IMG/VR virus record: IMGVR_UViG_3300024232_000016
Span: 1 to 52,259 of that record
Origin: a virus
Lineage: Duplodnaviria; Caudoviricetes
DNA: 52,259 nt
Strand: one strand, 5' to 3'
Both the position numbers and the translations under genes were made by a program. Positions 2,421-44,964 of this stretch are shown here, one piece after another. Under the pieces are notes generated by a model. The model was not told where the DNA came from. It ran no database searches and was given only the letters and a program-made list of their open reading frames with translations. Positions within the stretch are counted from its first letter, which is position 1; the number at the start of each line of letters is the position of its first letter.

Positions 2421-2837
2421 TTAGGCGATCGTCAGTACGCCATTGGTGCCATCAAAGTCGATGGTAAGGGTTTCACCATCGTTAAGCGTGATGCTGCTGC
2501 CGTAGTCCCACCAGCCAATGAGTGGATCAGCCGGGCTAGTGGGCGTGTCGTCAAACAGCACTACGTACCGTAGAGGCCCAGTGCTGCCACCGCTGCTTGT
2601 AAGCACCAAGTCGGCACACACCAGCTTGTAGGTGCCCGACGTTTGGGCAGAGCTGCTCGTGGTTACGTTGCGGCTGGAAAGATTGGTGTAGGTGATTTCG
2701 GTTAGGTCACCGACAATCCGGTTCGTGTTAACCGGCACGGTGTTGGTCAGTGAAATCTTGAGCTGGTCACTGCCAAGGTTGTACACCTTCTCGGCAAGGT
2801 CTTCTACGAAAGGCTGAAACTTGTTGAAAGATACCAC
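2421..2837 (-). CDS. Putative phage virion structural protein (beta-rich, tail/decoration type)
   Basis: 138 aa; FNKFQPFVEDLAEKV...LIGWWDYGSSITLNDGETLTIDFD resembles small structural proteins that accompany LamG tail proteins. AAGGAG Shine-Dalgarno upstream. Confidence 0.6.
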   Translation of the reverse strand: MVSFNKFQPFVEDLAEKVYNLGSDQLKISLTNTVPVNTNRIVGDLTEITYTNLSSRNVTTSSSAQTSGTYKLVCADLVLTSSGGSTGPLRYVVLFDDTPTSPADPLIGWWDYGSSITLNDGETLTIDFDGTNGVLTIA

Positions 2838-2905
2838 TGTGAGCTCCTTGACTGGATGGACCTAATACCCTTATCAGGCGTTCCTTCCGGTCAAGGTTAT
2901 GTAGC

Positions 2906-3187
2906 TTAAGGCTGTGGGGGCTGCGGTGTCAGCCGCTTCACATCCTTTCGGATTTTGGTTACTGTCTCTTCAACGTTTTCCACGTTCTTAGCTAGTTTGT
3001 TTTGACCTATGGCCAAAGCAAACAGCCACAGCATGGCTGCCAATGTAACAGTGCCGCCCACCATAAACAATATGGTGAACATAAGCATTAGCACACTCCA
3101 AGCCCACTTAGGCACTTTCACGTGATCCAGGTACGTCTCCCTGTGCTGGGGGGTCGGAGTCTGGTCCGTTTGACTCGGTTGGTTCAT
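2906..3187 (-). CDS. Small membrane protein (possible holin or lysis accessory)
   Basis: Long hydrophobic segment WAWSVLMLMFTILFMVGGTVTLAAMLWLFALAIG followed by a charged tail. Confidence 0.5.
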   Translation of the reverse strand: MNQPSQTDQTPTPQHRETYLDHVKVPKWAWSVLMLMFTILFMVGGTVTLAAMLWLFALAIGQNKLAKNVENVEETVTKIRKDVKRLTPQPPQP

Positions 3188-3605
3188 CTTGCAGTTTCCA
3201 TTTGCGGTGGTTGGTGCTACTTCCTTCCTCCAAATGCTCTTGAGCTCTTTCCAAGAAAGACAGTGCGTCAGAAGTAATACCTAACCGAGTTTTGTTCTTG
3301 CGAACATAGGTAGTAACTGCCCGCATACCTTCCTTCAGCCCACTGTGAATGGAGTGAACTTGGTGGTGAGTACAATCAACAGACGCAATCAGGTGTTCCA
3401 CCGCTTCAGCTACACGCTTTTGTGTATTGATGCTGCTTTCAAACCATATAGGCAGCCACTTCTTAAGGATACTCAAGAAGGTTACGGCTACCCATAAGAA
3501 GATCAAAAGCACTAACGCCAAAAATACAAAAGAAAGCCCCCACGTAGCTGCCTTGTTGATCCACCAGTCGGCTACATCCAGTGCCTGTTTTCCACCATCA
3601 CCCAT
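3108..3605 (-). CDS. Single-TM membrane protein with coiled-coil tail (holin-like candidate)
   Basis: TM segment WGLSFVFLALVLLIFLWVAVTFL. AGGAG lies 7 nt before ATG 3605; an alternative TTG is at 3611. Confidence 0.5.
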   Translation of the reverse strand: MGDGGKQALDVADWWINKAATWGLSFVFLALVLLIFLWVAVTFLSILKKWLPIWFESSINTQKRVAEAVEHLIASVDCTHHQVHSIHSGLKEGMRAVTTYVRKNKTRLGITSDALSFLERAQEHLEEGSSTNHRKWKLQDEPTESNGPDSDPPAQGDVPGSRESA

Positions 3606-3612
3606 CGCCAAA

Positions 3613-3656
3613 CTCCTACTGAGTGAGAAGCGATCCCTGCCCTCACTCAGTAGGAG
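3613..3656 (-). promoter_or_regulatory. 15-bp perfect inverted repeat sequestering the SD of the downstream membrane-protein gene (or a terminator)
   Basis: CTCCTACTGAGTGAG (3613-3627) / CTCACTCAGTAGGAG (3642-3656). On the minus-strand mRNA the 3' arm ends in AGGAG. Confidence 0.6.
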
Positions 3657-3671
3657 GGCAACCCATTCACC

Positions 3672-3836
3672 CTAACGCCCGTAAGGCGGCAACACCCAGC
3701 GAGCAACCTTGCCGACCCCGCCCACTACCCTGTGGGCACCACGTCGCAAGCGACCGTGACCACAAGCACTAGCCGACTGAGCCATCAAGGCAACCAGCGT
3801 CACCGCCACTACGAGCACAATCAACTTCTTCATCAT
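3672..3836 (-). CDS. Small secreted peptide (54 aa) with signal peptide and Arg/Gly-rich mature part
   Basis: My translation: MMKKLIVLVVAVTLVALMAQSASA-CGHGRLRRGAHRVVGGVGKVARWVLPPYGR. AGGAG SD upstream. Below the ORF-track length cutoff. Confidence 0.6.
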   Translation of the reverse strand: MMKKLIVLVVAVTLVALMAQSASACGHGRLRRGAHRVVGGVGKVARWVLPPYGR

Positions 3837-3842
3837 GTTCTC

Positions 3843-4376
3843 CTATCGGTTACGTGGCAACAAACGAAAACGACCACTTCCAATTCCTAGCCGGCTACCA
3901 AAGCCACAGCTACCACTAGAGCAGCCACCTTGGTAGTAAGCAGCATACGCAGGACGACCCACAGCCACAGCCTGAGGCTTTACAGCCGGAACAGGATTGA
4001 CCCGGTCTGAGTTAACTTGGGCAGCTATCTGTAGGTTCTGCTTGGTTAGCTGCTGTTGTAGGTCAGCAGCTAGTTGAACTTGCTGGTCAAACTGGTCCTT
4101 AATAGCAGCCAGTTGCTCCTTGAGCTGAGTCACCAACCTACGTAGTTCAACCACTTCAGCAGCAGCCGCCTGACTTTCTGGGGGAAGTGTGGGCGGAGAA
4201 CTGGCGTACACTTCGGGCTTGCTGCTTGGTATGGGCGGCAAGGGCTGCACTGGTAGCGGCTCCACAGGCACCATAGCCGCTGTAGGCTTAGACTGGCTAG
4301 GCAGCTTGGTGTCCATAGCCCTACGGGCTGGCTCAATACTGGCCAAGGCCAGCAAAGCAAAGGCCCAGCCCAGCAT
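3843..4376 (-). CDS. Membrane-anchored Pro-rich/coiled-coil protein (lysis accessory candidate)
   Basis: Hydrophobic N-terminus (MLGWAFALLALA), Pro-rich linker, Gln/Leu heptad coiled coil, C-terminal GGCSSGSC. The start is uncertain; the ORF is open to 4580, overlapping the peptidase. Confidence 0.5.
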   Translation of the reverse strand: MLGWAFALLALASIEPARRAMDTKLPSQSKPTAAMVPVEPLPVQPLPPIPSSKPEVYASSPPTLPPESQAAAAEVVELRRLVTQLKEQLAAIKDQFDQQVQLAADLQQQLTKQNLQIAAQVNSDRVNPVPAVKPQAVAVGRPAYAAYYQGGCSSGSCGFGSRLGIGSGRFRLLPRNR

Positions 4377-10147: not shown

Positions 10148-11407
10148 TTAAGCATGTTCAGACCCGGATTCCAACCGCTTCAATTCGTTTTCCAGATAAG
10201 GGTTGTCAGGGGTCTTATCCTCATTGGCAGCATGTACCCCATCGTCAATTGCCTTACGCCTATTATAGCCCGCCTGCCTACGTCTTAGCCACGTTGTACA
10301 AGCTATTCGCCAGTCGTCGGCCCATATCTGACTGGCCCACTCCAGGGCTATCTTGTACTGCCGCTGCTTGTGCTGGTAGTAGGCTAGGGCCATCGGGTAG
10401 GCCACGTGAGCCAGAAACGGCTCCTTAAACACGTCGCTGCCCGGCAGGTGCATCTTTTCCATCAGGTCCAGGTCCATGCCCAGCCAGCCATAGTTGAATT
10501 CCAGTAGCTCTTTATCAAACTGGTCCTGGAACTCCACCAGCCCTACGCTATTGAGCCTAGGCATCCTCAGGTAATGGTCCGGGGTAGTGTCAGCCAGCCA
10601 TTCCTGATGGTTGAAGGACTCCGTATAAACGTGTAGGTTGCTGCTGACTTGGTGGTACACACCCACTTCACAGCTAAGCTGAGCAGCCATGTATTCCAGC
10701 AAGAAGCTGAAGTGAACCGCATTGGCCCCCAACATACCCAGCACCAGATCATTGGAACGGTTGTAAACCGTCATGTCCAGGGCGTTGTTGGTGATGCTGA
10801 ATACACAGCACAGGTTGCAGCACACGTCCTTGGAGTACAGCTCACGTTCAGTTCCATGTTCGTAGTAGGGAACTCCACCAGCTTGAAGCAGGTCTTTAGT
10901 GGGGTCCCACATCTGTAAAACACCCCTACGGCTGTTTGGGTTCTTTTTCAGGTGCTGTACCAAGGCTTGTAGCTGGTCCCAACCGCCACCGTCCGGTTGA
11001 TTCCAGGCTATGTCTGGACTAGGGGACTTAATACCTACAGCTCGTTCGTGCCTCCACCTGTAGCCGTAAGCCCCGTTCGCAACTTCCCGATCCCCATCCT
11101 TTACGTAGGTAGGGTACTTGGCTGAATAGTACGCAATCGGGTCAATGTCCCTACGACCAGCCAGCATCCAAAGGCTTTCCATCAGGTGCAGAAACGGGTT
11201 GGCGTCCCGGGCTTCATTAAACAGCACCCGCTCCCGGGGCTGGGCATAGCTAACGATGATCGGTTCCAAAAGCTGGGCCACATCCCCCGCCCGGCTAGTA
11301 GTACGCTGAGTGGGAAAGCCTTCCTTGGTTTGAATAGCAGACATCACAAAGTTAGCCACCAGCTTGGTAAAGGCGTCATTGACATTGCGAACGTGAACGT
11401 GGGGCAC
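10148..11407 (-). CDS. Thymidylate synthase-fold enzyme, likely dUMP hydroxymethylase
   Basis: RDANPFLHLMESLWMLAGR, GAYGYRWR, SRRGVLQMWD, catalytic DVCCN, RSNDLVLGMLGAN (Asn at the dUMP-specificity position), NLHVY. Clustered with an aGPT-Pplase1 gene. Confidence 0.8.
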   Translation of the reverse strand: MPHVHVRNVNDAFTKLVANFVMSAIQTKEGFPTQRTTSRAGDVAQLLEPIIVSYAQPRERVLFNEARDANPFLHLMESLWMLAGRRDIDPIAYYSAKYPTYVKDGDREVANGAYGYRWRHERAVGIKSPSPDIAWNQPDGGGWDQLQALVQHLKKNPNSRRGVLQMWDPTKDLLQAGGVPYYEHGTERELYSKDVCCNLCCVFSITNNALDMTVYNRSNDLVLGMLGANAVHFSFLLEYMAAQLSCEVGVYHQVSSNLHVYTESFNHQEWLADTTPDHYLRMPRLNSVGLVEFQDQFDKELLEFNYGWLGMDLDLMEKMHLPGSDVFKEPFLAHVAYPMALAYYQHKQRQYKIALEWASQIWADDWRIACTTWLRRRQAGYNRRKAIDDGVHAANEDKTPDNPYLENELKRLESGSEHA

Positions 11408-17463: not shown

Positions 17464-17658
17464 TCATACTGGTTGCCTTTCCCTGAACAGAAGAACCGCC
17501 TTGTCGGCTGCTTCAGCACACCTAACCATGATTGCGTCTATGGTGGTTTCCTCAAGAGCGTAGGTCTTGTCCAGGCACTTGACCCACGTTTCCCTGAACA
17601 CACCTACCCACAGGGATTCCTCGGTATAGTAGGTTCTTAGCCTTAGTGGTTCGCTCAT
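17464..17658 (-). CDS. Small hypothetical protein
   Basis: ATGA overlap with the polymerase stop codon. Confidence 0.5.
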   Translation of the reverse strand: MSEPLRLRTYYTEESLWVGVFRETWVKCLDKTYALEETTIDAIMVRCAEAADKAVLLFRERQPV

Positions 17659-19682
17659 GCTGCTACTGCTTCCTCTGGGTCTTCTGACTTGGCCCAGTTG
17701 TTGGGGTGGAAACTATAATCAACCCGTAGTGGTATGCCGATGTCGTCGCCAGACAGTTCCATCAACCGCTTTACCTCCATTATATGGGCTAGGTTGCTAC
17801 CACGTTTTGGGCCACAGGGCAGGTCTAGCACTAGCTCGTCGTGTACTTGCATTGTGATAAAGCCACCCGGCACGTTAGCTTCTAAGTACTCAGCCACCCG
17901 CACCATTGCCCGGCACATACACCACATAGCTGTTCCCTGTACATGGTTGTTGAGCGGTGTGGTGGGCCGAATACTTCCGTAGTCATCCCGCTTGGACTGG
18001 ATTGGGTAAGGCCCCACTTCCTTATCGGGCATGGTTAGTACGTACCCGTGTTTATACGCAAAGGCTATTTGCTTCTGGTTCAGCTTGGATATTTCCGTGA
18101 ACCGGGCTTCAATACGCTTTTGAGCTCCAGGCATGTGATAGGCTAGGTCGGCTGTACCGCTTTCAGCCATTGCCCCATAGGTAACAGCAAAGTCCCCATT
18201 CTTGGTCCATTGGTACAGGCTGGCCTTGTACTTGTCCTTAAAGGACTCACCCTTACGCAAGCACTCTTCAAACTCCTTGGGATACAGGATATGGCTGACG
18301 AGCAAGTGCTGGCTACCAAAGTAGGGCGGGTCGTGTGGCCGCTCAAATAGCTGCACCATTGTCATTTCGCTGGCTTCATAGGCAGGTATGGTCAGCTCCA
18401 GGTTGCTATAGTCCAGGCTCCACCACTCCCGCCCGGTCATAGGCCCAAACAGATACCGTAGGTTGGAGTCGCTTAGCTTGCTGATGTTCTGTTCGTTGGG
18501 GTTGCTACTGCTGAACCGTAGGGCATAGCTGCCCGTGGCGTTAAGGCTAGGGTGTAGCTTTACCCATTGGCCCCTAACAGGTATGCCGAACCGCTTGTAG
18601 CTGTTGGCGTAGTTGATGGCTGTGTTACGCCCCCGGTTTACCCGTAGGGTCTTAATGAACATCCCAGCCGCTGACTTGGGGTCCAGGGTGTTGGACCACA
18701 CTTCCAAGGCCACTTTATCCACGCTGGGGGTGTTGGTCTTGGACTTCTTTTTCTTGCGTACTACAGGCGTCAGCTTGAACTTGTTGAACACGACATGCCG
18801 TAGGGCATTGCTGGTGCCACCCCTAGGCAGCTCCTTTAGACTGCCACCGCTTAGGGCAATGCACGTCTTCTCGCTTTCTAGCTCTTCCTTGGTTAGCCTA
18901 GTAACCAGCTCTTCCCAGCGTTGGCTGCTGTAGGTAACACCCCGGGATTCCATTTCGTAGATGATCTTAATCAGCTTACGCCGCTCCAGGTACAGCTTCC
19001 AGTACCCGCGTTGCTCCAATAGCTCCTTGTGCCTAAGCCATAGGGGCAGGGTTACGCCGCTGTCCACGTTGGCGTAGTTGCTGCACACGTTCCAATACTG
19101 GTGGTTGGCTGGCAGCTTAAGAAACTTGGCCACAGCCCTAGGCAGCCAATAGTCGTTGCTCCATACGTGCTCTTCGCCTTCAATACTAGGTAGCTGGGGC
19201 AAGCCTTTGCGGGCAACTAGCCACTCTTGCTTGTGCTGCACCTTGAAGGCTTTGCTCATAACCAGCCTACGGCATTCCTTTACCGCTTCAGCCAGCTTCT
19301 CTTCATAGGGCTGTATGTTCAGACCCAAGTACCGCAGAGCCATTGTGGTCAGGTCATGTGGCTCAGCACTAGCCAAGATATGACCGCTGTACAGGGTGTC
19401 TTGCACCTTACGCCACCAGCGGTGCTTCCACTTAATGCCCACAGCCACTAGGGCTGTGATGTCGTACTTGGCATTTTGAAAAACCACTTCATCGGCTTGC
19501 TCCAGCCGGTCTGTGATTTCTAGCAGGTCCCCCTTGGGTACTATGGGCAGCCGGGTTAGCGGGTTAACGTCCCATTCCCAGTAGCTCAGGTCGTTAGCTT
19601 CATTACAGATTGTAACCAAGAACGGTCGTGAAAGGTGGTATAGGTCAACCCCGCCAGTTTCAGTATCCAAACTGATTAGCAT
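17655..19682 (-). CDS. polA: Family A DNA polymerase with 3'-5' exonuclease
   Basis: ExoI LDTETGG, ExoII QNAKYD, ExoIII YANVD, RFSSSNPNEQNI, motif A LDYSNLEL, motif B KNGDFAVTYG, VQGTA, motif C QVHDEL. Confidence 0.93.
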   Translation of the reverse strand: MLISLDTETGGVDLYHLSRPFLVTICNEANDLSYWEWDVNPLTRLPIVPKGDLLEITDRLEQADEVVFQNAKYDITALVAVGIKWKHRWWRKVQDTLYSGHILASAEPHDLTTMALRYLGLNIQPYEEKLAEAVKECRRLVMSKAFKVQHKQEWLVARKGLPQLPSIEGEEHVWSNDYWLPRAVAKFLKLPANHQYWNVCSNYANVDSGVTLPLWLRHKELLEQRGYWKLYLERRKLIKIIYEMESRGVTYSSQRWEELVTRLTKEELESEKTCIALSGGSLKELPRGGTSNALRHVVFNKFKLTPVVRKKKKSKTNTPSVDKVALEVWSNTLDPKSAAGMFIKTLRVNRGRNTAINYANSYKRFGIPVRGQWVKLHPSLNATGSYALRFSSSNPNEQNISKLSDSNLRYLFGPMTGREWWSLDYSNLELTIPAYEASEMTMVQLFERPHDPPYFGSQHLLVSHILYPKEFEECLRKGESFKDKYKASLYQWTKNGDFAVTYGAMAESGTADLAYHMPGAQKRIEARFTEISKLNQKQIAFAYKHGYVLTMPDKEVGPYPIQSKRDDYGSIRPTTPLNNHVQGTAMWCMCRAMVRVAEYLEANVPGGFITMQVHDELVLDLPCGPKRGSNLAHIMEVKRLMELSGDDIGIPLRVDYSFHPNNWAKSEDPEEAVAA

Positions 19683-22676: not shown

Positions 22677-22948
22677 TGGACTTCCCTCCACTTGCTGGTT
22701 ACTTTCCACGGAACATGAATGTAGCTGCCCATACCGTTGACCAGATCTAGCCACAGCACGCCCTTGCCATCTGGTCGCAAGCTAAGGCACGCAAGGCAGT
22801 CGCACCTAGCCACCCGCATTGCATGAAACGTACCCGTCAGCCGCACTGACTTACCTTCCGGGCTAGTGGCCCTTAGTGAGTACCTAACCCCTCTAACCAA
22901 GTCATCAGGGTGGGTAATGGTCTTACGCTGTGATTGCCGCTTCGACAT
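22667..22948 (-). CDS. Hypothetical protein
   Basis: MSKRQSQR... with AGGGAG SD; fills the gap between the nuclease and the ATPase. Confidence 0.45.
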   Translation of the reverse strand: MSKRQSQRKTITHPDDLVRGVRYSLRATSPEGKSVRLTGTFHAMRVARCDCLACLSLRPDGKGVLWLDLVNGMGSYIHVPWKVTSKWREVQCQ

Positions 22949-24083
22949 CTTGTAGCTCCCTGAACATCGTATTGGTACGCACCAGCCCGCGTTTACTACC
23001 AACCAAAATATAGTCGTCCAGCGGTGTACCACGTGCTTCAGCTATTGGGTTCCACAGCCCAAACGGTAACGTGTAGTGCCTACGGTAGTGGGTAGGGAAC
23101 CTGTCCAGCCTGATCAGGTAGTTGAACGGGTTGGTGTTCGTAACAAAGCAAAAGTCCCACCATTCATAGTCATCGCACAGGTTTTCCAGCATTGGGTCAA
23201 AGCAGTAAGCCACGAACCGCTCTATGTCGGCTGGGCTTACGTCCACGTTCCACCGCATGAAGAAGAATTCAGGGTCAGCCGCAATCAAGCCCTGTAGCCG
23301 GCTGTAGAACTGCTCTTCCGTTTCAGCCCCTGCCTTGGCGTCGCCCCTGCCTTCCTTCTGTTTGATAGTGTACTTGCCCCCAGCCAGTGGGCGTCTAACC
23401 ACATTGTAGCGTACACCCCGCACTAGCTCGGCCTTGGCCTTTAGCTTCAGTTGCAGGGCAATCAGGTACAGCATGGTCTGTAGGTCAAACTTCAGGTTCC
23501 GCTGTAGCTCTTGGGGGTTGATGTCACCCTTGGACTTGTTCTCTTGCAAGTAGATGTCCCGCTTGCCAATTACGTCCACTGAATCAAACTTGCCCCGTAA
23601 GAACACCTGCCTGCCGCTGGGCAGCTTGTAGGCCTCATGGAACACTTCCTCTTGGAACATGGGCTTACGTTGCTGTACGTCGGGGTGGTTGGCCCAGTGG
23701 TTTACATATACCGGGAACTGAGCCAAGCACACCTTGTAGTACTTGTTCACTTCAACTTGCTGGTCCTGGTACTTGGCAGCCAGTTGCTGGCAGTACTTAA
23801 GCAGCACCCGTTCCCAAGGGCACCCGGCAGCGTGGGACTCTTCGCACAGGTGCCACATATTGCCGTACTCCAGCCTGTGGTTGAACCCCTCTGGGTCACG
23901 CAAGCCCTCTATGACGTTTATACGGAACCGCTCAGGGCAGAACAGATAGCCGTTCAGTAGGCTTTGGGTAACACCACCCATTGGCCCTTCATTGGTAGGC
24001 CCTTGCCACAGGGGCTTGGTGGGCTGCACGGGTGTCTTCAACTTGGTTAGGACTTGCTTGACTTTTGTTTGGACTTTAGGCAT
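22923..24083 (-). CDS. PD-(D/E)XK (Cas4/RecB-like) exonuclease
   Basis: TQSLL..Y..CP, GNMWH, LRGKFD, LQENKS, QTMLY motifs. Confidence 0.8.
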   Translation of the reverse strand: MPKVQTKVKQVLTKLKTPVQPTKPLWQGPTNEGPMGGVTQSLLNGYLFCPERFRINVIEGLRDPEGFNHRLEYGNMWHLCEESHAAGCPWERVLLKYCQQLAAKYQDQQVEVNKYYKVCLAQFPVYVNHWANHPDVQQRKPMFQEEVFHEAYKLPSGRQVFLRGKFDSVDVIGKRDIYLQENKSKGDINPQELQRNLKFDLQTMLYLIALQLKLKAKAELVRGVRYNVVRRPLAGGKYTIKQKEGRGDAKAGAETEEQFYSRLQGLIAADPEFFFMRWNVDVSPADIERFVAYCFDPMLENLCDDYEWWDFCFVTNTNPFNYLIRLDRFPTHYRRHYTLPFGLWNPIAEARGTPLDDYILVGSKRGLVRTNTMFRELQDVEAAITA

Positions 24084-24642
24084 CGTACAATTCCGTGAAG
24101 GCATCAATGAGCTGAACTATTACCCGCTGGCTGCTAAGCCCCTTGGTTTGGATCGGTTCCCGCAGAATAGCGGCTGGGTGTTTTACGTGGACCACATTAG
24201 CCTTAATTTTAGCCGCCCAATTGCCTTGGGTTGCATGTTGCCAGCTTAGGTCGCCCACACACACCACCAGCTTGGGCTTGGCCAGCTTAAACAGCTCTTC
24301 TAGCCGTGGCCTACAGGCTTCTATCTCGTTAGCCGTTGGCTCGCTGTTCTTACGGTTGGTGTTTTCATCCAGGGGTATGCAGCCCACAAGGTTGACAAAG
24401 GCTATAGCCGGAATCGTGCTGAATACAGAACAAGCTGACTCCACTTGGCTATCCAGCAGCTTGCCGGCTGGCCCTACAAACGGAACCCCTATGGAGTTTT
24501 CACTAATGCCGGGGGCTTCACCCACAAACAGGATTTCACAGGGCAGCCTACCCCGTGCCGTTACTACCTGTTTGCGGACTTTGCTTAGCCCGCACCTTTG
24601 GCAGTGGTTCCACCGGCTGCAATGCACTTGGTACGGGGTCAT
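24076..24642 (-). CDS. Uracil-DNA glycosylase family 4 (Fe-S)
   Basis: CQRCGL, FVGEAPG, PFVGPAGKLLD, NLVGCIP, PTANEIEAC, HPAAILR. Confidence 0.9.
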   Translation of the reverse strand: MTPYQVHCSRWNHCQRCGLSKVRKQVVTARGRLPCEILFVGEAPGISENSIGVPFVGPAGKLLDSQVESACSVFSTIPAIAFVNLVGCIPLDENTNRKNSEPTANEIEACRPRLEELFKLAKPKLVVCVGDLSWQHATQGNWAAKIKANVVHVKHPAAILREPIQTKGLSSQRVIVQLIDAFTELYDA

Positions 24643-31891: not shown

Positions 31892-31937
31892 AAAGGGCAT
31901 GGCAAGCGGGTGTCTTGCCCTAAACCGGAGAAATGCA

Positions 31938-33944
31938 ATGAAAAAGGCTGATGTGAAAATTGGTGGCGTTTACGCGGCTCTTGTCAGCGGCAACATGGTG
32001 CGGGTCCGCATTGACAGCGAAAGCCAATACGGGGGCTGGGAAGCCACCAACCTTGCCACCAACCGGGCTGTCCGCATTAAGACCGCTGCCCGGCTAACCC
32101 GTGCGGTACCCACTACGGGGGGTGTGCCCGTTAAGGCCCCTAGCAGCCCCGTGGCGGCTGCACCAGCCCCAACGGCTGCCAGTACCTACCAGCCCGCCCA
32201 AGTGCCGGCAAGCGAAGCCCAGCCAGCCAGCCAAGCCATTGCAGCACGGGCTGCCGCTGGCGTAAGTGCCACGGTGGCTATGGCCAGCCAAGCCCCCAAA
32301 GTGCAGCTAAGCCGGCTGCTAGGGGGCACCAAGCCCAGCACCGACACCAGCCCTCACCTGATCATCATTGCTCGGGCTGGCACTGGTAAAACCACTTCGC
32401 TGGTTGGTGGCGTGAACCGGCTGCTTGGTAACACGGTGGACCTGATTCCCAGCCCCCAGCAAGCAGCGGTGTGGGCAGCTATGGAACTGAGTAAGGGTAA
32501 GGTTGAAACCATTTGCTTCTGTGCGTTCAACAAGGCTATTGCCACCGAGCTGCAGAGCCGGCTGCCGATGGGCTGCAATGCCATGACGCTGCACAGCTTG
32601 GGGCTGAAGGCTGTAACCAAGGCATTCGGCCAAGTCAGGGTCAACAGCCACCGGGTGCAAGACATCATCAGCGAAATCCTGGAAAAGGACATCCGGGAAA
32701 TCCGCAAGCACGACGCCATTCTGCTGAAGGCTACCGAAGAGCTGGTTGGCCTGTGTAAGCAGAATCTGTGCAGTGGTAGTGAAGACGAGCTGGACCAACT
32801 GGCTGGCCACTACGACGTTGAGCTGAACGGCAGCCGGGAGCGGGTGTTTGCCTTGGTGCCCAAGGTGCTGGAGCGGTGCAAGGACGTGAACCGGGACCGC
32901 TGCATTGACTTCAACGACATGATCTGGTTGCCGGTTGCTTGCGACCTGCCTTGCACCAAGTACGACTTGCTACTGGTTGATGAAGCCCAAGACCTGAACA
33001 AGTGCCAGCAACAGCTTGCCCTACGTAGTGGTAGCCGGCTGGTGCTGTGCGGTGACGACCGCCAAGCCATCTACGGGTTTGCGGGAGCTGACTGCGATAG
33101 CCTGCCCCGCATGGGTGAGCTGTTGGGTGCCACGAGCCGGGGTTGTGTTACCCTGCCCCTGACGGTTACTCGCCGCTGTGCCAAGGCTATTGTCCGTGAG
33201 GCCAATACGCTGGTGGCTGAGTTTGAAGCCTTTGAAAGCAACGGCGAAGGCCAAGTGCGTAAGGCCAGCTTCATGGCTACGAACGTGCAAGTGGTGCAAG
33301 CCATTGAAGCCAGCTACGAGCAAGGCATTACGCCAGCCAAGCAAGGGATTCTTGCCGAAGGCAAGCAAGCCACAGCCCAAGCCAACCTGGATTACCGCAG
33401 CCAAGTGCAAGACGGTGATTTTTTGCTGTGCCGCTGCAATGCCCCGCTGGTAAGCGAGTGCTTCAAATTCATCAAGGTTGGGCGTAAGGCCAACATCCAA
33501 GGACGGGATATTGGGCAGGGGCTTATCCGCACCATCCAAAAGCTGAAGGCTGGCACCATTGTGGACTTGGTCAGCAAGCTGGACGACTGGTACACGGCTG
33601 AAACCCGCAAGGAAAATGCCAAGCGTAACCCCAGTGATGCCCGACTGATTGCCTTGCAAGACCGTAAGGACTGCCTGATGGCCTTTGTGGACGGCAGCAC
33701 CACGGTTGAGCAGGTGACTAGCAAGATTGAGCAGGTGTTCAGCGACAACACCACGGGCGGCATTCGGCTCAGCAGCATCCACAAGGCCAAGGGGCTGGAA
33801 GCCAACCGGGTGTTCCTACTGGAACCCAAGGGGGCTACGGTGCCCCACCCAATGGCTAAAAGCGGCTGGCAGAAGCAGCAAGAGCTAAACTTACGTTATG
33901 TGGCCATCACTCGGGCTATCAAAGAATTGGTTTACGTTAGCTAA
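31938..33944 (+). CDS. SF1 UvrD/Rep-like helicase with extra N-terminal domain and Ala/Pro linker
   Basis: [51 protein letters not shown]. Confidence 0.92.
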
Positions 33945-40618: not shown

Positions 40619-40846
40619 CTAGTTGAGGTTGTCGTTGCTAACAAACAGGTCCGGGGTGGAGCTGGCCACAATTTTAAGGGCTTCCGTGAGCATGTCCATA
40701 CACAGCTCCTTCTGGTTCAAGGGGCCAGTGATATGGACTACGCCTGCCTCCTGTAGCTTGATGGTTAGCTCGGCAACTGGTTGGGCTGGGCTGCCCCTAG
40801 TAGCCCCAATGTGCCCGCCTTCGGCTTTCATCCTGTAGTGGTTCAT
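40619..40846 (-). CDS. Small hypothetical protein
   Basis: ATGA overlap with the portal stop codon. Confidence 0.5.
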   Translation of the reverse strand: MNHYRMKAEGGHIGATRGSPAQPVAELTIKLQEAGVVHITGPLNQKELCMDMLTEALKIVASSTPDLFVSNDNLN

Positions 40847-43800
40847 ACTAAGTCCCTCTTGAATGCTGGGTCTGGTTTGAATGGCGGGGGTTCTACATAC
40901 TCAGCTTGAACTGGAGCTGTTTCGTTGAGGTATTGGTAGAACGTCCCGCCTTTGATTTTGACAATGTCCTTGGCACGCTGTAGCCAGCTTATGGCTTCAA
41001 CCACTCCTTTCTTGGCAGCTTGCTCCACGGTTACAGGGTACCAATGGCAGCGGCAATTGCTAATGCCAATGCCATTGGCTATAATCCACCCACTGGTGTC
41101 GGTAAAGTCATACACAGGTCCATTGTAATGAAATCTCGTAAGTTTCTTAATTCTGCTGAAGTCAAACAAATTATTGGTCTTTACCTTGACGGCACGTCTG
41201 TAAAGGCTTTGGCTACAGCCTTCGGGGTTAGCCGTGGTAATGTTCATGCTCGTTTGGTTGAGAACGGCATTAGCCCAAGAACGCGGTCCGAATCTGAGTC
41301 CGCTAAATGGGCAGGACTGACTGCCAGCCAGCGTAGAGTCAAAGCCGCTGGGCAATGCAAAGCAGCTTGGGCTGCTGTTAGGGGCAGTAAGCGTTCCACA
41401 GCCAGCAAGTTGCTCGGAGCCAGAACTACGTTCGAACGGCAGTCCAAAATCCATGCTTGGGAAACTGAGATCGTAGCCATTCTCAGACCAGTCTTCTTGG
41501 ACCAAGTGGTTCAGCAGTTTCCTGTCGGCAGCTACAATCTGGACATAGCCATCAAATCGTTCAGCGTCGCCGTGGAAATTGTCAACGGGCACCAAAAGTC
41601 TGGCACAGCCGCTAAGCATTTGAAGCGAACGGAATACTTGGTCACACAAGGCTGGCGTGTTTTGTTTATCGAAACTTGGCGAAAAGAAAGCAGTGTAGTC
41701 AGAACCACTTGTCCGATTACTGGCCAGTTTGCTATGCCCACTCAGCTCGGGTTTAACTTCAAAGCAATACTCAATCACGTAGTCCGTATCAGTAAGCTCG
41801 CCAGCAGCAACCCATCCACGTTGGGTGGCTACGGGGTGATTGACCGTCAGGGAAAGGTCATTACCGGACTCGGTCGTTATCTTAACCGCCTGCCCTTTAT
41901 ATCTGGATTTGAATCCAGCCCAAAAGACGCCCTCTACAACAGTCTCGGGTAGAATACAGTTATAGCTCCAAGGCGGGCGGAACAGCTTAAACGTAGGATC
42001 GTCGGCCCGGTAGATGTTGGTACCGTTTAGCCCGTAGCTTTCTAGGTCCCAATGCTCGGGGCGTACCCGCTTGTCGGCTGTAGCCCCATAGCCAGCATAC
42101 GGAAAGGCATCGCTGACCATTGGGTCTTTTAGGGCAGCGTCTTGGGCGTTGCTGTAGGCGGCTAGGGTGTTGGTGCGGAACACGTTTTCTAAGTGGGCTG
42201 GGCTAAGGGGGCTACCTTCCTCCTCCAATCGCTTGGTAACTACAGCAATGAATTCCTTTTGCGGCAGCCCTTCAGCTAGGGCTTTGCTCAGCTGGGTACG
42301 TACATCGGCCACAGCCTTCTCGGTTAGGTCCCCGGTAATGGCGAAGCTGCCGTTTCTTACGTGCTGGGCTGTTTCCAGGTAGTGGGTGCCTACTTGCACT
42401 GGGCTGCGGTCCAGCACTTCCACGGCAACTTGTAGGGCAGGCAGGTGTACCGCAGCACTGGGCTGGGCAACTGCCGGCACTGGTAAGTTAGGGGGGCTGG
42501 TTAAGCCAGCTAATACCCCAGTAAACGCATCGGCAGCCTCGCTAGGGGCTTTGGGCAGCAAGGGCAATAGGCTACTAGGCAGCCTGCCGGCGACGTCTGC
42601 GTGGCCTGTGGCGTGGCTGGCTAGGGTGTCTGTGGTTAGGTCCAGCCCTAGCAGGGGCTGTAGCTGGGCAATTTGCCCGGCTATTAGCTGGCTAAGGCTA
42701 TCTAGGGTGGCTTCGGCTAGGTTGGGTAGCCGCCTTACGCTTTCGGCTAGGCCCTTTACCCGCTGTTGGGCTGCCAGCAAGCCCTTGCCAATCAGCCCCC
42801 GTAGCTTGCTTAGCAGGTCAGGCAGTTCAATGAACTGCTCATTCTGCTGAACCGAACCCATAAAAGGGATCGCATAAGCTTCACCTCCTTTGGTCGGTGC
42901 AGCTTCGTCAACCTGAGCCTGACCTGATAGTCGTATAGGTGTGTGGTTTCTTAGCTTGTTACTAAACACGAGCCGGTCAAACACAGCCACACGACCTTCA
43001 AGCATGTTCAGCCGTTTGGCATAGTACTCGCCTCTGCCGGGCTTTACGTAAGCAATAGTGATATGAGGTTTGTAGTCAGGGAATGTGCTGGTGTGTGGGA
43101 ACTTGGTTAGCTGCTCATGGAGCTCATGCAGCCCCTTGCTAAGTACATCAATTTTCAGTACGTCGTATTCACCTTCTTTGGTGAACATAGTGACAGGACC
43201 TAGCTGTATGGCGATTGGGGCATAGTTATGAACGATGTCTTCTAAGTCTTCCACCTTGTCTGTATGTAGTCCATACAGGGCTGTTACGTGGGGGTTGAGC
43301 TCCTTACCTTTTTCAGCTAAGTCATTGGGGTCAATTAGGTCACCTACCATACGCACTTCAAAAGCCAAGTCACCCGGTAGATTGAACTGGGTACTGCTGT
43401 AGTCGTGGGCTTTCTTCTGTTCTTTACCTTCTTTGTGTTGGCTGGCTTCTTTTACAGCCTCTTTAGCATCAGGCTCAACCTTAGCTAGTTTGCTGTAGTA
43501 GTTGGGGTCTTCTGTCAAGTGGTCAATGGCAATTTCCAAGGCCACTCTGTGGTCACTGGTATGCTCCAGCTCAACCTTGATGCCGGCTGCTAATTGGACC
43601 GGGTTGAACTTACTTAGGTCGTGCTCTTTGTCGCCTTTGCCACCCGGAATCAGGTCAGTACCCCGTTCACTGTGTTGGCTGGGTGGGACTTGCTGTGGTG
43701 GGGCTTGTTGGGGTGGACCCTGTTCACCCACTGGACCGCCAATGCTGCTACCGGCTAGACTGCTGCCGCTAATATCACCAGCAAAGCTCTCCACGAGGGA

Positions 43801-44964
43801 CTTGGGCTCAATCTTGTAGTCAACGTCCTTGCCCCAATTGAGCCAAGCTACAGGACGCAATACTTGCTCGTCAACGCACTGCACAATTTGAATAAGCTCG
43901 TTGGTGCACACGCTTAGCAACACCAAGAACGGAATGCTTCGGCCGCTAAAGCCGCTACCTGTGTCAGCGGCTTGTACCACTTCCCGGGGAATGTCAGCAC
44001 CCTTGAGGATGTTGTCATCACACAGGTCCACCCATTGGAAAATTTCCGTGGCTCCCGCCACTGTCTGGGGAGGAGAGTACCCGGTCAGTTCTTTACCGTT
44101 GTTGTCTAGCAGCCTTGGTAGGGTTAGGGCGGCTCCGCTAAGCCGGTTTTCAGCCGTTTCCCGGAGCAGGTCACGCCAGCTAACTTCATTGCCGTCGGGT
44201 AGGGTCAGCTTCAGGTGCGGTGGGTACCAGAAGATATCCCCAATGTAGGCGTCCTTGACCATCCTAAGTTGCTGTAGCCGCTTAGCCCCGTGGTCCATCC
44301 ATTTCTCGTACCATGCTGGATATTGCCTACGGGTAAGGGCTACACCGTACTGGCTGCCAAACTCAGGGTTGAACTTAAGCCACAGGGCTTGAGGGTGGTA
44401 CAGGGGCTTACCCTTTACCCGCATTCCACACAACTGGTTGCCAGAGCGGACTTCCAGTGCTCGGGAGTCTTCGGGGGCAAAGTCCTTCAGCCCGTTGATG
44501 GTTAGCAAGCCCTTCTCATCCACTTTATAGATGGTCTGTAGCGGGGCAAAGCCCCACTTCTTGGCACTTACCAGCTTGGGTCTGTGGTGCTTCCACAGGT
44601 AGTCCCACTGGTCTTGCACCCACTGCCGGACCTGTTCGTTGGGGCTGGTGACTGTCACCTCGGCAGCCATCAGAGCAGCGTTGCGAATGTTCATGCTAAA
44701 GTCCACAATCGGGTCGGACGTTAGCATCATTCGGGCTGTCCACAGCCGCCATAAAGGTAGGTTGCTTACGAACAGCTCGCCAAAGTAGGCATAGCGGCTG
44801 CTTTGATACTCAGCCGTGGGATCCTTCTTGAGCAAGCCCTGTTTGATTTCAGACCGAGTACGACGCTTGGGCAAGCGGGGCGTACCGGCACTGATAACCG
44901 GGTTAGCCGGGTTAACAGCTACGTTGATGGACTGATTGGCAAAGCCGTTAGGTTTCTTAGCCAT
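40843..44964 (-). CDS. Portal-like protein fused to DUF5661-like, 2H-phosphoesterase (Acb1/T4 57B-like) and intein-containing MuF head-morphogenesis domains
   Basis: The N-terminal ~400 aa look portal-like (DPIVDFSMNIR, WGFAPLQ.IY, YGVALTR...WYEKW, EQVLRPVAWLNWG). Then IPGGKGD...GIKVELEHT...AIDHLTEDPNYYSKL (DUF5661-like), PHVTALY / PHITIAY (2H), and MuF motifs ENVFRTN...D.RVRPEH...PPWSYN|CRC. Confidence 0.8.
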   Translation of the reverse strand: MAKKPNGFANQSINVAVNPANPVISAGTPRLPKRRTRSEIKQGLLKKDPTAEYQSSRYAYFGELFVSNLPLWRLWTARMMLTSDPIVDFSMNIRNAALMAAEVTVTSPNEQVRQWVQDQWDYLWKHHRPKLVSAKKWGFAPLQTIYKVDEKGLLTINGLKDFAPEDSRALEVRSGNQLCGMRVKGKPLYHPQALWLKFNPEFGSQYGVALTRRQYPAWYEKWMDHGAKRLQQLRMVKDAYIGDIFWYPPHLKLTLPDGNEVSWRDLLRETAENRLSGAALTLPRLLDNNGKELTGYSPPQTVAGATEIFQWVDLCDDNILKGADIPREVVQAADTGSGFSGRSIPFLVLLSVCTNELIQIVQCVDEQVLRPVAWLNWGKDVDYKIEPKSLVESFAGDISGSSLAGSSIGGPVGEQGPPQQAPPQQVPPSQHSERGTDLIPGGKGDKEHDLSKFNPVQLAAGIKVELEHTSDHRVALEIAIDHLTEDPNYYSKLAKVEPDAKEAVKEASQHKEGKEQKKAHDYSSTQFNLPGDLAFEVRMVGDLIDPNDLAEKGKELNPHVTALYGLHTDKVEDLEDIVHNYAPIAIQLGPVTMFTKEGEYDVLKIDVLSKGLHELHEQLTKFPHTSTFPDYKPHITIAYVKPGRGEYYAKRLNMLEGRVAVFDRLVFSNKLRNHTPIRLSGQAQVDEAAPTKGGEAYAIPFMGSVQQNEQFIELPDLLSKLRGLIGKGLLAAQQRVKGLAESVRRLPNLAEATLDSLSQLIAGQIAQLQPLLGLDLTTDTLASHATGHADVAGRLPSSLLPLLPKAPSEAADAFTGVLAGLTSPPNLPVPAVAQPSAAVHLPALQVAVEVLDRSPVQVGTHYLETAQHVRNGSFAITGDLTEKAVADVRTQLSKALAEGLPQKEFIAVVTKRLEEEGSPLSPAHLENVFRTNTLAAYSNAQDAALKDPMVSDAFPYAGYGATADKRVRPEHWDLESYGLNGTNIYRADDPTFKLFRPPWSYNCILPETVVEGVFWAGFKSRYKGQAVKITTESGNDLSLTVNHPVATQRGWVAAGELTDTDYVIEYCFEVKPELSGHSKLASNRTSGSDYTAFFSPSFDKQNTPALCDQVFRSLQMLSGCARLLVPVDNFHGDAERFDGYVQIVAADRKLLNHLVQEDWSENGYDLSFPSMDFGLPFERSSGSEQLAGCGTLTAPNSSPSCFALPSGFDSTLAGSQSCPFSGLRFGPRSWANAVLNQTSMNITTANPEGCSQSLYRRAVKVKTNNLFDFSRIKKLTRFHYNGPVYDFTDTSGWIIANGIGISNCRCHWYPVTVEQAAKKGVVEAISWLQRAKDIVKIKGGTFYQYLNETAPVQAEYVEPPPFKPDPAFKRDLV
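41057..41085 (+). promoter_or_regulatory. Sigma70-like promoter for the antisense endonuclease gene, embedded in intein block G codons
   Basis: TTGCTA (41057-41062)-N17-TATAAT (41080-41085), 42 nt upstream of ATG 41128. Confidence 0.65.
41128..41952 (+). CDS. HTH + DUF559/Vsr-like endonuclease encoded antisense inside the intein
   Basis: HTH IIGLYLDGTSVKALATAFGVSRGNVHARLVENGI; basic linker; nuclease-like WETEI...QQFPVGSYNLDIAI...VAVEI.NGH...KRTEYLVTQGWRVLFI. The ORF (274 aa) lies wholly within the intein boundaries. Confidence 0.75.
   Translation: MKSRKFLNSAEVKQIIGLYLDGTSVKALATAFGVSRGNVHARLVENGISPRTRSESESAKWAGLTASQRRVKAAGQCKAAWAAVRGSKRSTASKLLGARTTFERQSKIHAWETEIVAILRPVFLDQVVQQFPVGSYNLDIAIKSFSVAVEIVNGHQKSGTAAKHLKRTEYLVTQGWRVLFIETWRKESSVVRTTCPITGQFAMPTQLGFNFKAILNHVVRISKLASSNPSTLGGYGVIDRQGKVITGLGRYLNRLPFISGFESSPKDALYNSLG

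Follow-up and report, generated by a model that had tools for sequence, protein, structure and literature searches.

An intein with an antisense Vsr/DUF559-like nuclease gene in the portal-MuF gene of an uncultured soil phage, and related modules in other phages

Canonical large inteins consist of HINT splicing blocks flanking an in-frame LAGLIDADG or HNH centre, and they home into a conserved site of an essential gene. The DNA analysed here, a 52,259-nt stretch (the window; IMG/VR record IMGVR_UViG_3300024232_000016) from an uncultured soil phage, departs from this plan. It holds an intein in the MuF part of a portal-MuF fusion gene, and a gene for a Vsr/DUF559-like nuclease runs through that intein on the opposite strand. 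Compared with canonical inteins, the nuclease is outside the intein polypeptide and the intein centre has no recognisable fold or family. The original prediction, made from the sequence alone, took this architecture to be undescribed. That claim does not stand, because antisense VSR-like homing endonucleases in full inteins of actinobacteriophages have already been reported by Gosselin, Arsenault and Gogarten (bioRxiv 10.1101/2025.01.02.630785, 20 Oct 2025). The preprint surveys 784 actinophage inteins, 63 of them with non-canonical endonucleases, and names DNA polymerase, minor capsid, terminase and thymidylate synthase as host genes. The minor capsid inteins have exclusively non-canonical homing endonucleases, and HHpred links the VSR-like enzyme to 3R3P. 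The architectures are called rare, in a survey limited to PhagesDB. Antisense LAGLIDADG endonucleases had been described earlier (Gorbalenya 1998 and Gogarten 2002, as cited by 10.1101/2025.01.02.630785).

How does the window compare with the actinophage cases? As they are described in the preprint, it shares with them an unsplit intein, an antisense VSR-like open reading frame (ORF) between the splicing blocks, a minor capsid (MuF) host gene and a match to 3r3p. It differs in that its nuclease ORF reaches over both splicing regions, beyond the 'between blocks' of that description. Furthermore, its host gene is a portal-MuF fusion of an uncultured soil phage, and identity to the Gordonia nuclease does not exceed 31%. 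The loci of Gordonia Vividuovirus phages analysed below are actinophage examples of the same module. Beyond actinophages, the module was found in Salmonella and E. coli Guernseyvirinae, in phages of Pseudomonas, Vibrio, Aggregatibacter and Idiomarinaceae, and in no fewer than 106 IMG/VR stretches. A literature search, incomplete in coverage and excluding the supplementary lists of 10.1101/2025.01.02.630785, returned no report of an antisense nuclease outside actinophages. In print, the Jerseyvirus MuF intein appears as an 'intein-containing capsid morphogenesis protein', without the antisense gene (PMC8425127). Judged by its sequence, the window is a divergent further example of a recently described architecture and not the first, but the spread of the MuF module well beyond actinophages may be new. 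The present analysis adds to the literature found in showing how widely the MuF module occurs outside actinophages and that it has one conserved site of insertion, and in providing codon-level evidence from four lineages and a free-standing control. Another apparent addition is that the candidate expression signals of the nuclease gene are embedded antisense to the intein splicing blocks.

Other described systems share parts of this plan. In 'fractured genes', a Vsr-like or GIY-YIG endonuclease gene lies between the halves of a split intein (Dassa et al. 2009, PMC2677866). Likenesses to the window are a Vsr-like gene at the place of the intein endonuclease domain, occurrence mainly in phages, own control elements and overlap with the neighbouring genes. 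In fractured genes, however, the host gene and its intein are broken into two genes whose products undergo trans-splicing, with overlaps of 6-69 bp, whereas the window has a continuous intein ORF that the whole 825-nt nuclease ORF (stop included) overlaps on the opposite strand. I-Bth0305I, of the EDxHD homing endonuclease family (Taylor et al. 2011, PMC3239194), resembles the window family in its N-terminal helix-turn-helix (HTH)/NUMOD region, its C-terminal Vsr-like core and the retention of the metal-binding Asp and Glu. It is encoded in a group I intron, and the His in its composite motif is not conserved in the window family. In the PDB and in Pfam, the window family matches DUF559 (3hrl) and MTES_1575 best, not Vsr. 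Because the His of the EDxHD motif is unconserved, the window family is regarded as a relative of EDxHD and is not filed as a member.

Two systems combine an endonuclease with another reading frame. An intein in cyanobacterial dnaX carries an out-of-frame LAGLIDADG endonuclease (Phillips, DeSimone and Gogarten, bioRxiv 10.64898/2026.09.14.751524). As in the window family, selection depends on the frame, with the host frame governing the splicing parts and the endonuclease frame the centre. The dnaX case differs in having a LAGLIDADG enzyme, a +2 frame and a cellular host gene in place of codon-aligned antisense coding. In the ShiLan insertion, a hidden out-of-frame HNH endonuclease lies in a phage methylase gene (Arsenault et al. 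2025, PMC11855218). The host frame likewise reads stop-free through the insert while another frame encodes a homing nuclease, but the insertion lacks splicing domains, its overlapping frames share one strand and its nuclease belongs to the HNH type.

In the window, the nuclease gene lies wholly inside the intein, with its stop opposite intein codon 3 (Table 1). The codons of the two strands coincide (41956-41128 = 828 = 3x276), position 1 of one frame being opposite position 3 of the other. The original prediction had described a 274-aa ORF at 41128-41952 in exact codon register inside the intein, and these coordinates hold. In such a codon-aligned arrangement, every stop codon of the intein frame would be read as TTA, CTA or TCA by the nuclease frame. 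This register is the only opposite frame in which all stop-making codons can be avoided synonymously, which explains how one gene can keep the other open. The window nuclease contains 23 Leu and 27 Ser residues, and if these were coded as in the other long minus-strand ORFs of the phage (9725 codons), 8.8 stop-making codons would be expected in its gene; there are none (P(0) = 3.8e-5). The remaining two opposite frames of the same stretch contain 10 and 28 stops, the register frame 0. Stop-making codons are likewise absent from the embedded nuclease genes of 7/7 lineages, of 2/2 loci on contigs of metagenome-assembled genomes (MAGs) and of 80/80 IMG/VR loci. These 80 are the best of 106 confirmed relatives and are the closest relatives of an embedded query, uninformative on distant and possibly free-standing members. 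The control comes from free-standing homologs, which have 12 and 13 stops in the opposite register frame, with 14.2 expected for the one in phage IME285. Dual coding is selected and is not due to chance. The case is strong for the family; for the window copy, dual coding is supported by homology and by stop avoidance. The proposal of a dual-coding element, with one strand kept stop-free and the other encoding a separate nuclease, is well supported by these comparative data. The AT skew of the window is negative along the minus-strand genes and positive over 41150-41600.

More direct evidence on which frame is selected comes from a codon-position test, in which substitutions were counted at MuF-frame positions 1, 2 and 3 in each zone. 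A Jersey-like set was made up of 14 distinct Guernseyvirinae sequences, 72-96% identical and without indels, with zone borders one codon off, which leaves the counts otherwise unchanged; their intein has 272 aa, and the antisense stop is opposite intein codon 2. The changes at positions 1/2/3 amounted to 87/55/285 in the N-extein, 24/14/148 in the C-extein, 26/15/41 in the N-terminal splicing part and 6/2/18 in the C-terminal splicing part, but to 135/25/55 in the intein centre. In other words, changes sit on the MuF wobble position in the exteins and splicing parts and on the wobble position of the antisense frame in the centre. The same pattern was seen in 3 Gordonia Vividuovirus phages (exteins 3/0/49 and 10/6/34, centre 72/16/42). 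It was also seen in 2 independent IMG/VR pairs (centre 94/39/59 and 76/28/52), whose splicing parts and exteins are unflipped. These pairs remained from 13 candidates among 75 inteins, which gave 4 disjoint pairs, 3 of them being the same comparison of identical copies. The wobble position thus flips in the intein centre of four independent lineages. In the Gordonia Vividuovirus set, 130 changes fall in 208 intein-centre codons, against 52 in 250 and 50 in 250 extein codons, which suggests that these intein alleles have a history different from that of their host genes.

Protein-level conservation over greater distances gave a concordant picture. When the codons of 7 lineages, including the window, were aligned, identity in the centre was 31.2% in the antisense frame versus 19.5% in the intein frame, and the BLOSUM sums were 4443 versus 1051. 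Opposite the N-terminal splicing blocks, the order was reversed (antisense 22.8% versus 38.2%). An alignment built from the intein frame favours that frame, and even then identity in the centre was 24.8% for the antisense and 21.4% for the intein frame; the splicing parts gave 20.5% for the antisense versus 36.0% and 32.3% for the intein frame. Purifying selection thus acts on the nuclease frame in the centre and on the intein frame in the splicing blocks. Through the centre, the nuclease gene keeps the intein frame open by its choice among synonymous codons.

What does the antisense gene encode? The original prediction read its product as an HTH region followed by a DUF559/Vsr-like nuclease, and profile searches agree, with different strength for the two parts. 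Pfam DUF559 (PF04480) matches residues 117-179 of the window nuclease with 24.5 bits (gathering score 20.6), and the NCBIfam DUF559 model matches with E 1.6e-7, far below its equivalog cut-off. The HTH matches at residues 3-53 (HTH_58 with 20.5 bits, HTH_7 and others) are weak and below cut-offs. The family is large: an exhaustive HMMER search returned 1430 cluster representatives with E<=1e-3, among them 541 with <=1e-10 and 7 with <=1e-30. The top match reached 6e-38, and the best matches are 37-40% identical over residues 12-259. Pfam domains among 84 aligned family members were MTES_1575 (PF18741, a restriction-enzyme family) in 44, HTH_58 in 39, HTH_7 in 27 and DUF559 in 12. Against the PDB, the nuclease part of the family profile matched 3hrl_A (a DUF559 'endonuclease-like protein', 4.6e-5) and 3r3p_A (the catalytic domain of I-Bth0305I, 5.6e-4), while the HTH part matched 2lvs (1e-4) and the PAI subdomain of Sleeping Beauty (0.008). 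Vsr itself (1cw0) was matched with an E of 0.61 only.

In the alignment of 84 sequences, only R51, D139 and E150 are invariant (84/84). Residues conserved in at least 90% include S54, W61, N137, R167 (79/84), G175 and W176. The window nuclease has every residue of both classes. D139, E150 and R167 of the family align with the matching residues of 3hrl and 3r3p. The window product is probably a working metal-dependent nuclease. The original prediction had taken the 'EIVNG' at the place of the usual DUF559 E-x-D-G motif as a sign that the nuclease might be diverged or inactive. The reading 'EIVNG' is confirmed, but it is no sign of decay because the 'D' of E-x-D-G is not conserved anywhere in the family. 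The C-terminal tail is less uniform. It is conserved at Y235 (73/84) and I238 (66/84), and in the window it contains a lineage-specific insertion of ~22 aa; the window nuclease also has a 4-aa insertion relative to most relatives. The tail motif 'YGVI..G' is the exact antisense of 'T.NHP.' of intein block B. In the free-standing Acinetobacter homolog, a MAFFT alignment pairs a loosely similar stretch, 'YFKVLTIR', with the tail motif, while the BLASTP match stops before the tail. Either both strands are functionally constrained where tail and block B overlap, or the likeness may have arisen by chance.

The host ORF has Pfam matches to Portal_Mu (24.9 bits), DUF5661 (39.6) and Phage_Mu_F (31.5), all above the gathering score, and it matches head protein and portal families in PHROGs. 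Directly after the MuF domain, the junctions read ...FRPPWSYN↓CILPET...GIGISN↓CRCHWYP (the arrow marks the junction), with Cys1 at 41956-41958, Asn301 at 41056-41058 and the +1 Cys next to it. The motifs CILPETVV, LTVNHPV (block B), GPVYDFTD and IIANGIGISN follow in order. On re-reading, everything that the original prediction had said of the intein was borne out, namely its position at 41056-41958, the split of PPWSYN↓CRC and the splicing blocks. All residues invariant in an alignment of 7 inteins that includes the window (C1, Y20, G22, G32, T38, N40, H41, T45, G48, D59, G130 and N301) are accordingly present in the window intein. A profile made from these 7 sequences matched 24 inteins or HINT domains in the PDB, the best with 1.6e-9, by its two ends only. 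The centre in the intein frame matched nothing in Pfam, PHROGs, NCBIfam or a PDB profile search, in agreement with the original prediction, which saw no motif there. A known nuclease or other domain in the intein-frame centre was considered but found no support, since the same searches match only the two ends.

The insert probably splices as an intein, because the essential gene is uninterrupted and selection keeps the frame open. Wherever contigs from 4 other soil-metagenome runs overlap the intein, their sequence is identical to it, and they bridge both junctions; therefore, the intein is not an assembly artefact. One single-nucleotide polymorphism, at 42520 in the extein, was seen among the contigs of these 4 runs. 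The C-terminal tail and the stop codon of the nuclease ORF are opposite the N-terminal splicing region, while the promoter-like site, the Shine-Dalgarno-like site and the start codon are opposite the C-terminal splicing region.

The same module occurs in many phages. A tblastn search with the antisense product returned 100 phage records, of which 61 are from Salmonella, 15 from Pseudomonas and 8 from Gordonia phages; the remainder include Acinetobacter, Escherichia, Vibrio, Idiomarinaceae, Haemophilus/Aggregatibacter and Shigella phages. The nuclease is antisense to a long coding sequence in 19/20 loci examined and free-standing in 1. These 19 coding sequences are named as head morphogenesis, MuF-like, minor head or capsid morphogenesis proteins (13) or as 'hypothetical' (6). 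All 19 records have the MuF gene annotated, and none has the full-length nuclease ORF. Salmonella phage sam has only a short internal 'hypothetical' ORF annotated within the nuclease, and E. coli phage Snoke has the 'intein-containing capsid morphogenesis protein' annotated but not the antisense gene. In six lineages that were inspected, the MuF ORF is uninterrupted through an intein at the same site (xN/Q↓C...xN↓C[RK][CS]) and the antisense ORF is open over 233-301 aa. Thus, both frames are open in these six lineages, as the original prediction would have it for homologous MuF inteins. In the Gordonia phages Fosterous, Affeca, Vivi2 and Angelicage, the match (tblastn, 30-31% identity, E 6e-14) is antisense to MuF-like minor capsid genes.

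In IMG/VR, a pattern scan yielded at least 106 confirmed relatives. All of the best 80 loci lack a stop in the opposite register frame across the nuclease match, and all 80 have a long opposite ORF (236-1535 aa) that matches a hidden Markov model (HMM) of the intein. The N-junction has its Cys in 77/80; the other 3 have no N-junction call, as the opposite ORF leaves the locus end in 2 and the HMM match falls short of the intein start in 1. The C-junction reads xN↓CR[CS] in 77/80, and most of the others end at the contig border. Phage_Mu_F scored above the gathering score just before the intein in 10/10 sampled host ORFs. The module is at the same MuF site in 80/80 loci. Among genome contigs, a scan found the nuclease gene in 2 MAG loci and embedded in each. 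Fusions of portal and MuF in one ORF of 1061-1535 aa (Phage_portal + Phage_Mu_F + intein) recur in 4 IMG/VR loci (L030, L038, L060 and L102); unlike these, the window has a portal part that matches Portal_Mu and not Phage_portal. Two IMG/VR MuF proteins with the same intein (L079, 1430-3949 minus; L097, 1496-4186 minus) end in a PBECR2 domain, a Barnase-EndoU-ColicinE5/D-RelE-like nuclease domain; therefore, the module is also present in MuF proteins with C-terminal effector-like domains.

Evidence of mobility comes from the Jersey-like lineage. A Jersey-like MuF query found a homolog in 619 phage records, 75 of which cover at least 80% of the query in one place. For many of the other MuF homologs, whose exteins are 90-96% identical, the match falls into two pieces over ~1.05-1.12 kb in place of 1.9 kb, and the intein is therefore absent from those records. 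Salmonella phage MA12 has the exact empty site, PPAHPN↓CRST. In one pair only, MA12 versus the intein-bearing allele of vB_StyS-sam, identity is 0.81 and 0.88 in the 90-nt flanks and 0.93-0.98 beyond, and the differences immediately at the empty site are synonymous. This pattern would be the expected trace of homing with co-conversion, and it also fits an altered target site in the occupied alleles. The presence/absence polymorphism of the intein is thus a result for the Jersey-like lineage.

Free-standing forms were found in Acinetobacter phage vB_AbaM_IME285 and in an IMG/VR contig 97% identical to it. There, the nuclease gene converges on a MuF gene that lacks the intein, with a 7-nt overlap at the 3' end of that gene, and lies ~60 nt from the 'CKCR' site that holds the intein elsewhere. 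The product has two HTH repeats and the core, and it matches the window nuclease with E 3e-14. It looks like an ancestor or a cousin of the embedded form. The possibility that this homolog is a fractured MuF gene with a split intein was rejected, as the MuF gene is complete and intein-less and the nuclease gene is convergent downstream.

Candidate expression signals of the plus-strand gene overlap with the conserved intein blocks. In the window, the -10 element ends 42 nt before ATG 41128. The relatives usually have their start ATG antisense to the His codon of the block F motif 'GHVY(D/N)LE', and it is preceded by GGAG or GAGG, which is the antisense of L-E/L-Q codons. GAGG is present in 12/14 Jersey-like loci, as is a TATAAT at the block G position (12/14). 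Of the unique IMG/VR loci with a locatable ATG, 37/52 have a Shine-Dalgarno-like 4-mer at -18..-5, as compared with 11% before any ATG, and 12/52 have a perfect TATAAT. A promoter scan missed the -10 of the sam locus (L002), where no -35 matched. The conservation of these motifs in the relatives is suggestive, and the nuclease gene of the window would be both transcribed and translated from the plus strand. The original prediction also had nuclease production uncoupled from late-gene expression, a proposal whose sole support is the promoter-like and Shine-Dalgarno-like sites. No RNA run containing the sequence was found, which carries no weight for or against expression.

Table 1. Positions of the portal-MuF gene, the intein, the antisense nuclease gene and candidate signals in the window, and of the two free-standing loci in their own records
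Feature	Position	Strand	Details
Host gene ORF, portal-MuF fusion	40843..44964	minus	Single ORF, 1373 aa
Host gene order (Pfam)			Portal_Mu, DUF5661, 2H-phosphoesterase/Acb1-like, Phage_Mu_F, intein, then 70-aa C-extein
Class-1 intein, 301 aa	41056..41958	minus	Cys1, block B, terminal Asn, +1 Cys
N-terminal splicing region, ~residues 1-66, blocks A+B	41761..41958	minus	PDB intein matches, profile positions 8-88
Intein centre, ~residues 67-262	41173..41760	minus	Open frame, no family match
C-terminal splicing region, ~residues 263-301, blocks F+G	41056..41172	minus	PDB match, profile positions 264-295
Nuclease gene, 274 aa + TAG	41128..41952	plus	ATG 41128, TAG 41950-41952
HTH DNA-binding region, residues 3-53	41134..41286	plus	With invariant R51 and linker motif 'RTRSESE..KW'
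Vsr/DUF559-like PD-(D/E)xK core, residues 105-190	41440..41697	plus	D139 (YNLD), E150 (VAVE), R167, G175-W176
C-terminal tail, residues 191-274	41698..41949	plus	Motif 'YGVI..G..GRYL..LP'; co-encoded with blocks A+B
Promoter-like TTGCTA-17 nt-TATAAT	41057..41085	plus	Antisense to block G codons (..W-I-I-A..I-S-N)
Shine-Dalgarno-like AGG	41116..41118	plus	9 nt before ATG 41128
IME285 locus (L007), free-standing	455-1348 vs 1342-2118	plus vs minus	
IMG/VR free-standing locus (L107)	2453-3394 vs 3388-4164	plus vs minus	

The explanation that we consider probable is that the window holds a composite selfish element in the MuF part of the portal-MuF gene, made of a splicing intein and an antisense gene for a homing nuclease. 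Several results weigh against it. The Vsr/EDxHD-type His is not conserved in the family, where positions 152-160 are variable and no residue reaches 35% (the window nuclease has H155, its Jersey-like relatives none); therefore, the catalytic mechanism is not readable from Vsr or I-Bth0305I. On the side of the intein, Pfam Intein_splicing matches the insert with 28.8 bits (E 1.3e-6) and does not reach the gathering score of 35.8, and the penultimate residue is Ser and not the common His, although SN is also found in 62/80 IMG/VR relatives. Codon-usage log-odds per codon in the MuF frame fall from +0.238 in the N-extein to +0.036 in the intein centre, and those of the antisense frame rise from -0.088 to +0.040 there, which is parity of the two frames. 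The promoter scan of the window gave a match of 10/12, with 2 sites versus 1.0 +/- 1.1 in shuffled sequences, which is not significant. The Shine-Dalgarno and -10 motifs of the relatives are antisense to conserved intein blocks in related loci, and their conservation may be partly driven by the intein. Lastly, no close relative of the window copy was found by blastn of 40843-42400 against phages or by a locus search of viral and metagenome contigs with the window nuclease, and a word-indexed protein search with that nuclease gave 2 matches only. The polymorphism test thus rests on other lineages, which are at most 35-40% identical to the window in protein.

The window copy could accordingly be read as a relic, in which the intein is fixed and vertically inherited, the nuclease is unexpressed or inactive and the open frame has not yet decayed. 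The equivocal codon-usage log-odds and the lack of polymorphism among the window-lineage sequences found are compatible with this. So are the ~22-aa and 4-aa insertions in the nuclease, a weak Shine-Dalgarno site (AGG only), a start displaced by a few codons from the block F position of 5/6 other lineages, and the statement in 10.1101/2025.01.02.630785 that some VSR-like cases look vertically inherited. We nevertheless find a relic unlikely. The ORF of 274 codons is intact and keeps 3/3 invariant and all >=90% conserved residues, and the family members P0008 and P0010 have an insertion at the same place as the ~22-aa one, which makes it a subfamily trait and not damage. A perfect TATAAT and an ATG are in place. 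An unselected antisense ORF should also gain stops, as the other opposite frames have done.

Also improbable is that the plus-strand protein is expressed but is not a homing enzyme, acting as a DNA-binding regulator, as a phage-versus-phage exclusion nuclease directed at the MuF genes of competitors or, through its antisense transcription, as a tuner of late-gene expression. An HTH region and the lost Vsr-type His would also suit a protein that only binds DNA or has an altered function, antisense transcription running head-on into that of a late structural gene would be regulatory in its own right, and the free-standing homologs beside intein-less MuF genes indicate that the protein persists without the intein. 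However, the invariance of D139 and E150 and the near-invariance of R167 are what a functional metal-dependent nuclease core should show. In 80/80 IMG/VR loci, the gene is strictly tied to a single insertion site of a single host gene; the presence or absence of the intein among near-identical exteins together with clustered synonymous changes is a homing signature, and the nearest characterised relative, I-Bth0305I, is a homing endonuclease. That there is no plus-strand gene at all and the antisense similarity merely mirrors intein-frame conservation (second positions do pair with second positions in this register, giving some similarity, and the intein-frame motif 'FHGD..DGE.E.V' mirrors 'YNLD..VAVE') can hardly be right and is already contradicted by the results, namely by free-standing homologs that are the same protein despite their opposite-frame stops, by centre substitutions on the antisense wobble in four lineages, by Pfam and PDB matches in the centre zone for the antisense product only and by a nuclease family of 1430 representatives.

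How would the composite element work? Late transcription of the minus strand would yield a precursor in which the N-part (~66 aa) and the C-part (~39 aa) of the intein form the HINT splicing domain around an insert of ~195 aa, the sole role of which would be to be stop-free. Splicing would join ...PPWSYN to CRC... and restore MuF. Expression of the plus-strand nuclease gene would begin in the stretch antisense to intein blocks F and G, which contains its probable promoter, its ribosome-binding site and its start codon. The 274-aa HTH/Vsr/DUF559-like protein most likely binds and cuts the intein-less MuF gene of co-infecting related phages, near the site coding for PPxxxN↓CRC, so that repair by recombination would transfer a copy of the intein along with the nuclease gene (homing). 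The nuclease activity, its target, plus-strand expression and splicing are predicted in this model.

A broader proposal, which we hold tentatively and rate a little short of even, is that the MuF intein and the nuclease gene antisense to it make up an ancient module of two obligately interlocked strands, which would be common in many phage groups and environments and no rare accident. According to this proposal, blocks F and G would double as the -10 element, ribosome-binding site and start of the nuclease gene, and blocks A and B as its conserved tail and stop. The module could have originated when a free-standing nuclease gene that targeted MuF, of the kind that persists next to intein-less MuF in Acinetobacter phages, fused head-on with a mini-intein.

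Apart from the intein, the portal-MuF fusion contains an internal 2H-phosphoesterase domain at residues ~556-643 (~43036-43299). It matches 2_5_RNA_ligase2 with 36.5 bits and the anti-CBASS family Acb1 with 28.7 bits (gathering score 27), each above its gathering score, and it has both H-x-T motifs ('PHVTALYG' and 'PHITIAYV'). Among PDB sequences, it has a weak match only, to Acb1 7t26 (E 0.061). This domain may be a virion-packaged cyclic-nucleotide phosphodiesterase that is delivered with the DNA. Elsewhere in the window, 5/10 large ORFs tested had no PHROG match at E<=1e-5. Recognisable ORFs include a DNA polymerase (17655-19682), a helicase (31899-33944), a ThyX-like thymidylate synthase (10148-11407) and an exonuclease (22923-24107).

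Cases in which the two DNA strands encode a protein each, codon opposite codon and with separate purifying selection on both, have rarely been demonstrated in bacteria or phages, and dozens of natural replicates are available here. The module associates a homing endonuclease gene with a splicing element without fusing them in one polypeptide, a point of relevance to the 'splicing first, nuclease later' model of how inteins arose and to the question of how split inteins did. It also indicates a nuclease family that would target a conserved phage head gene, and it points to inteins that tolerate large arbitrary inserts. If the interlocked-module proposal is true, there would be stretches in which both strands encode functionally constrained protein at once, and the intein would tolerate ~200 aa of essentially arbitrary sequence.

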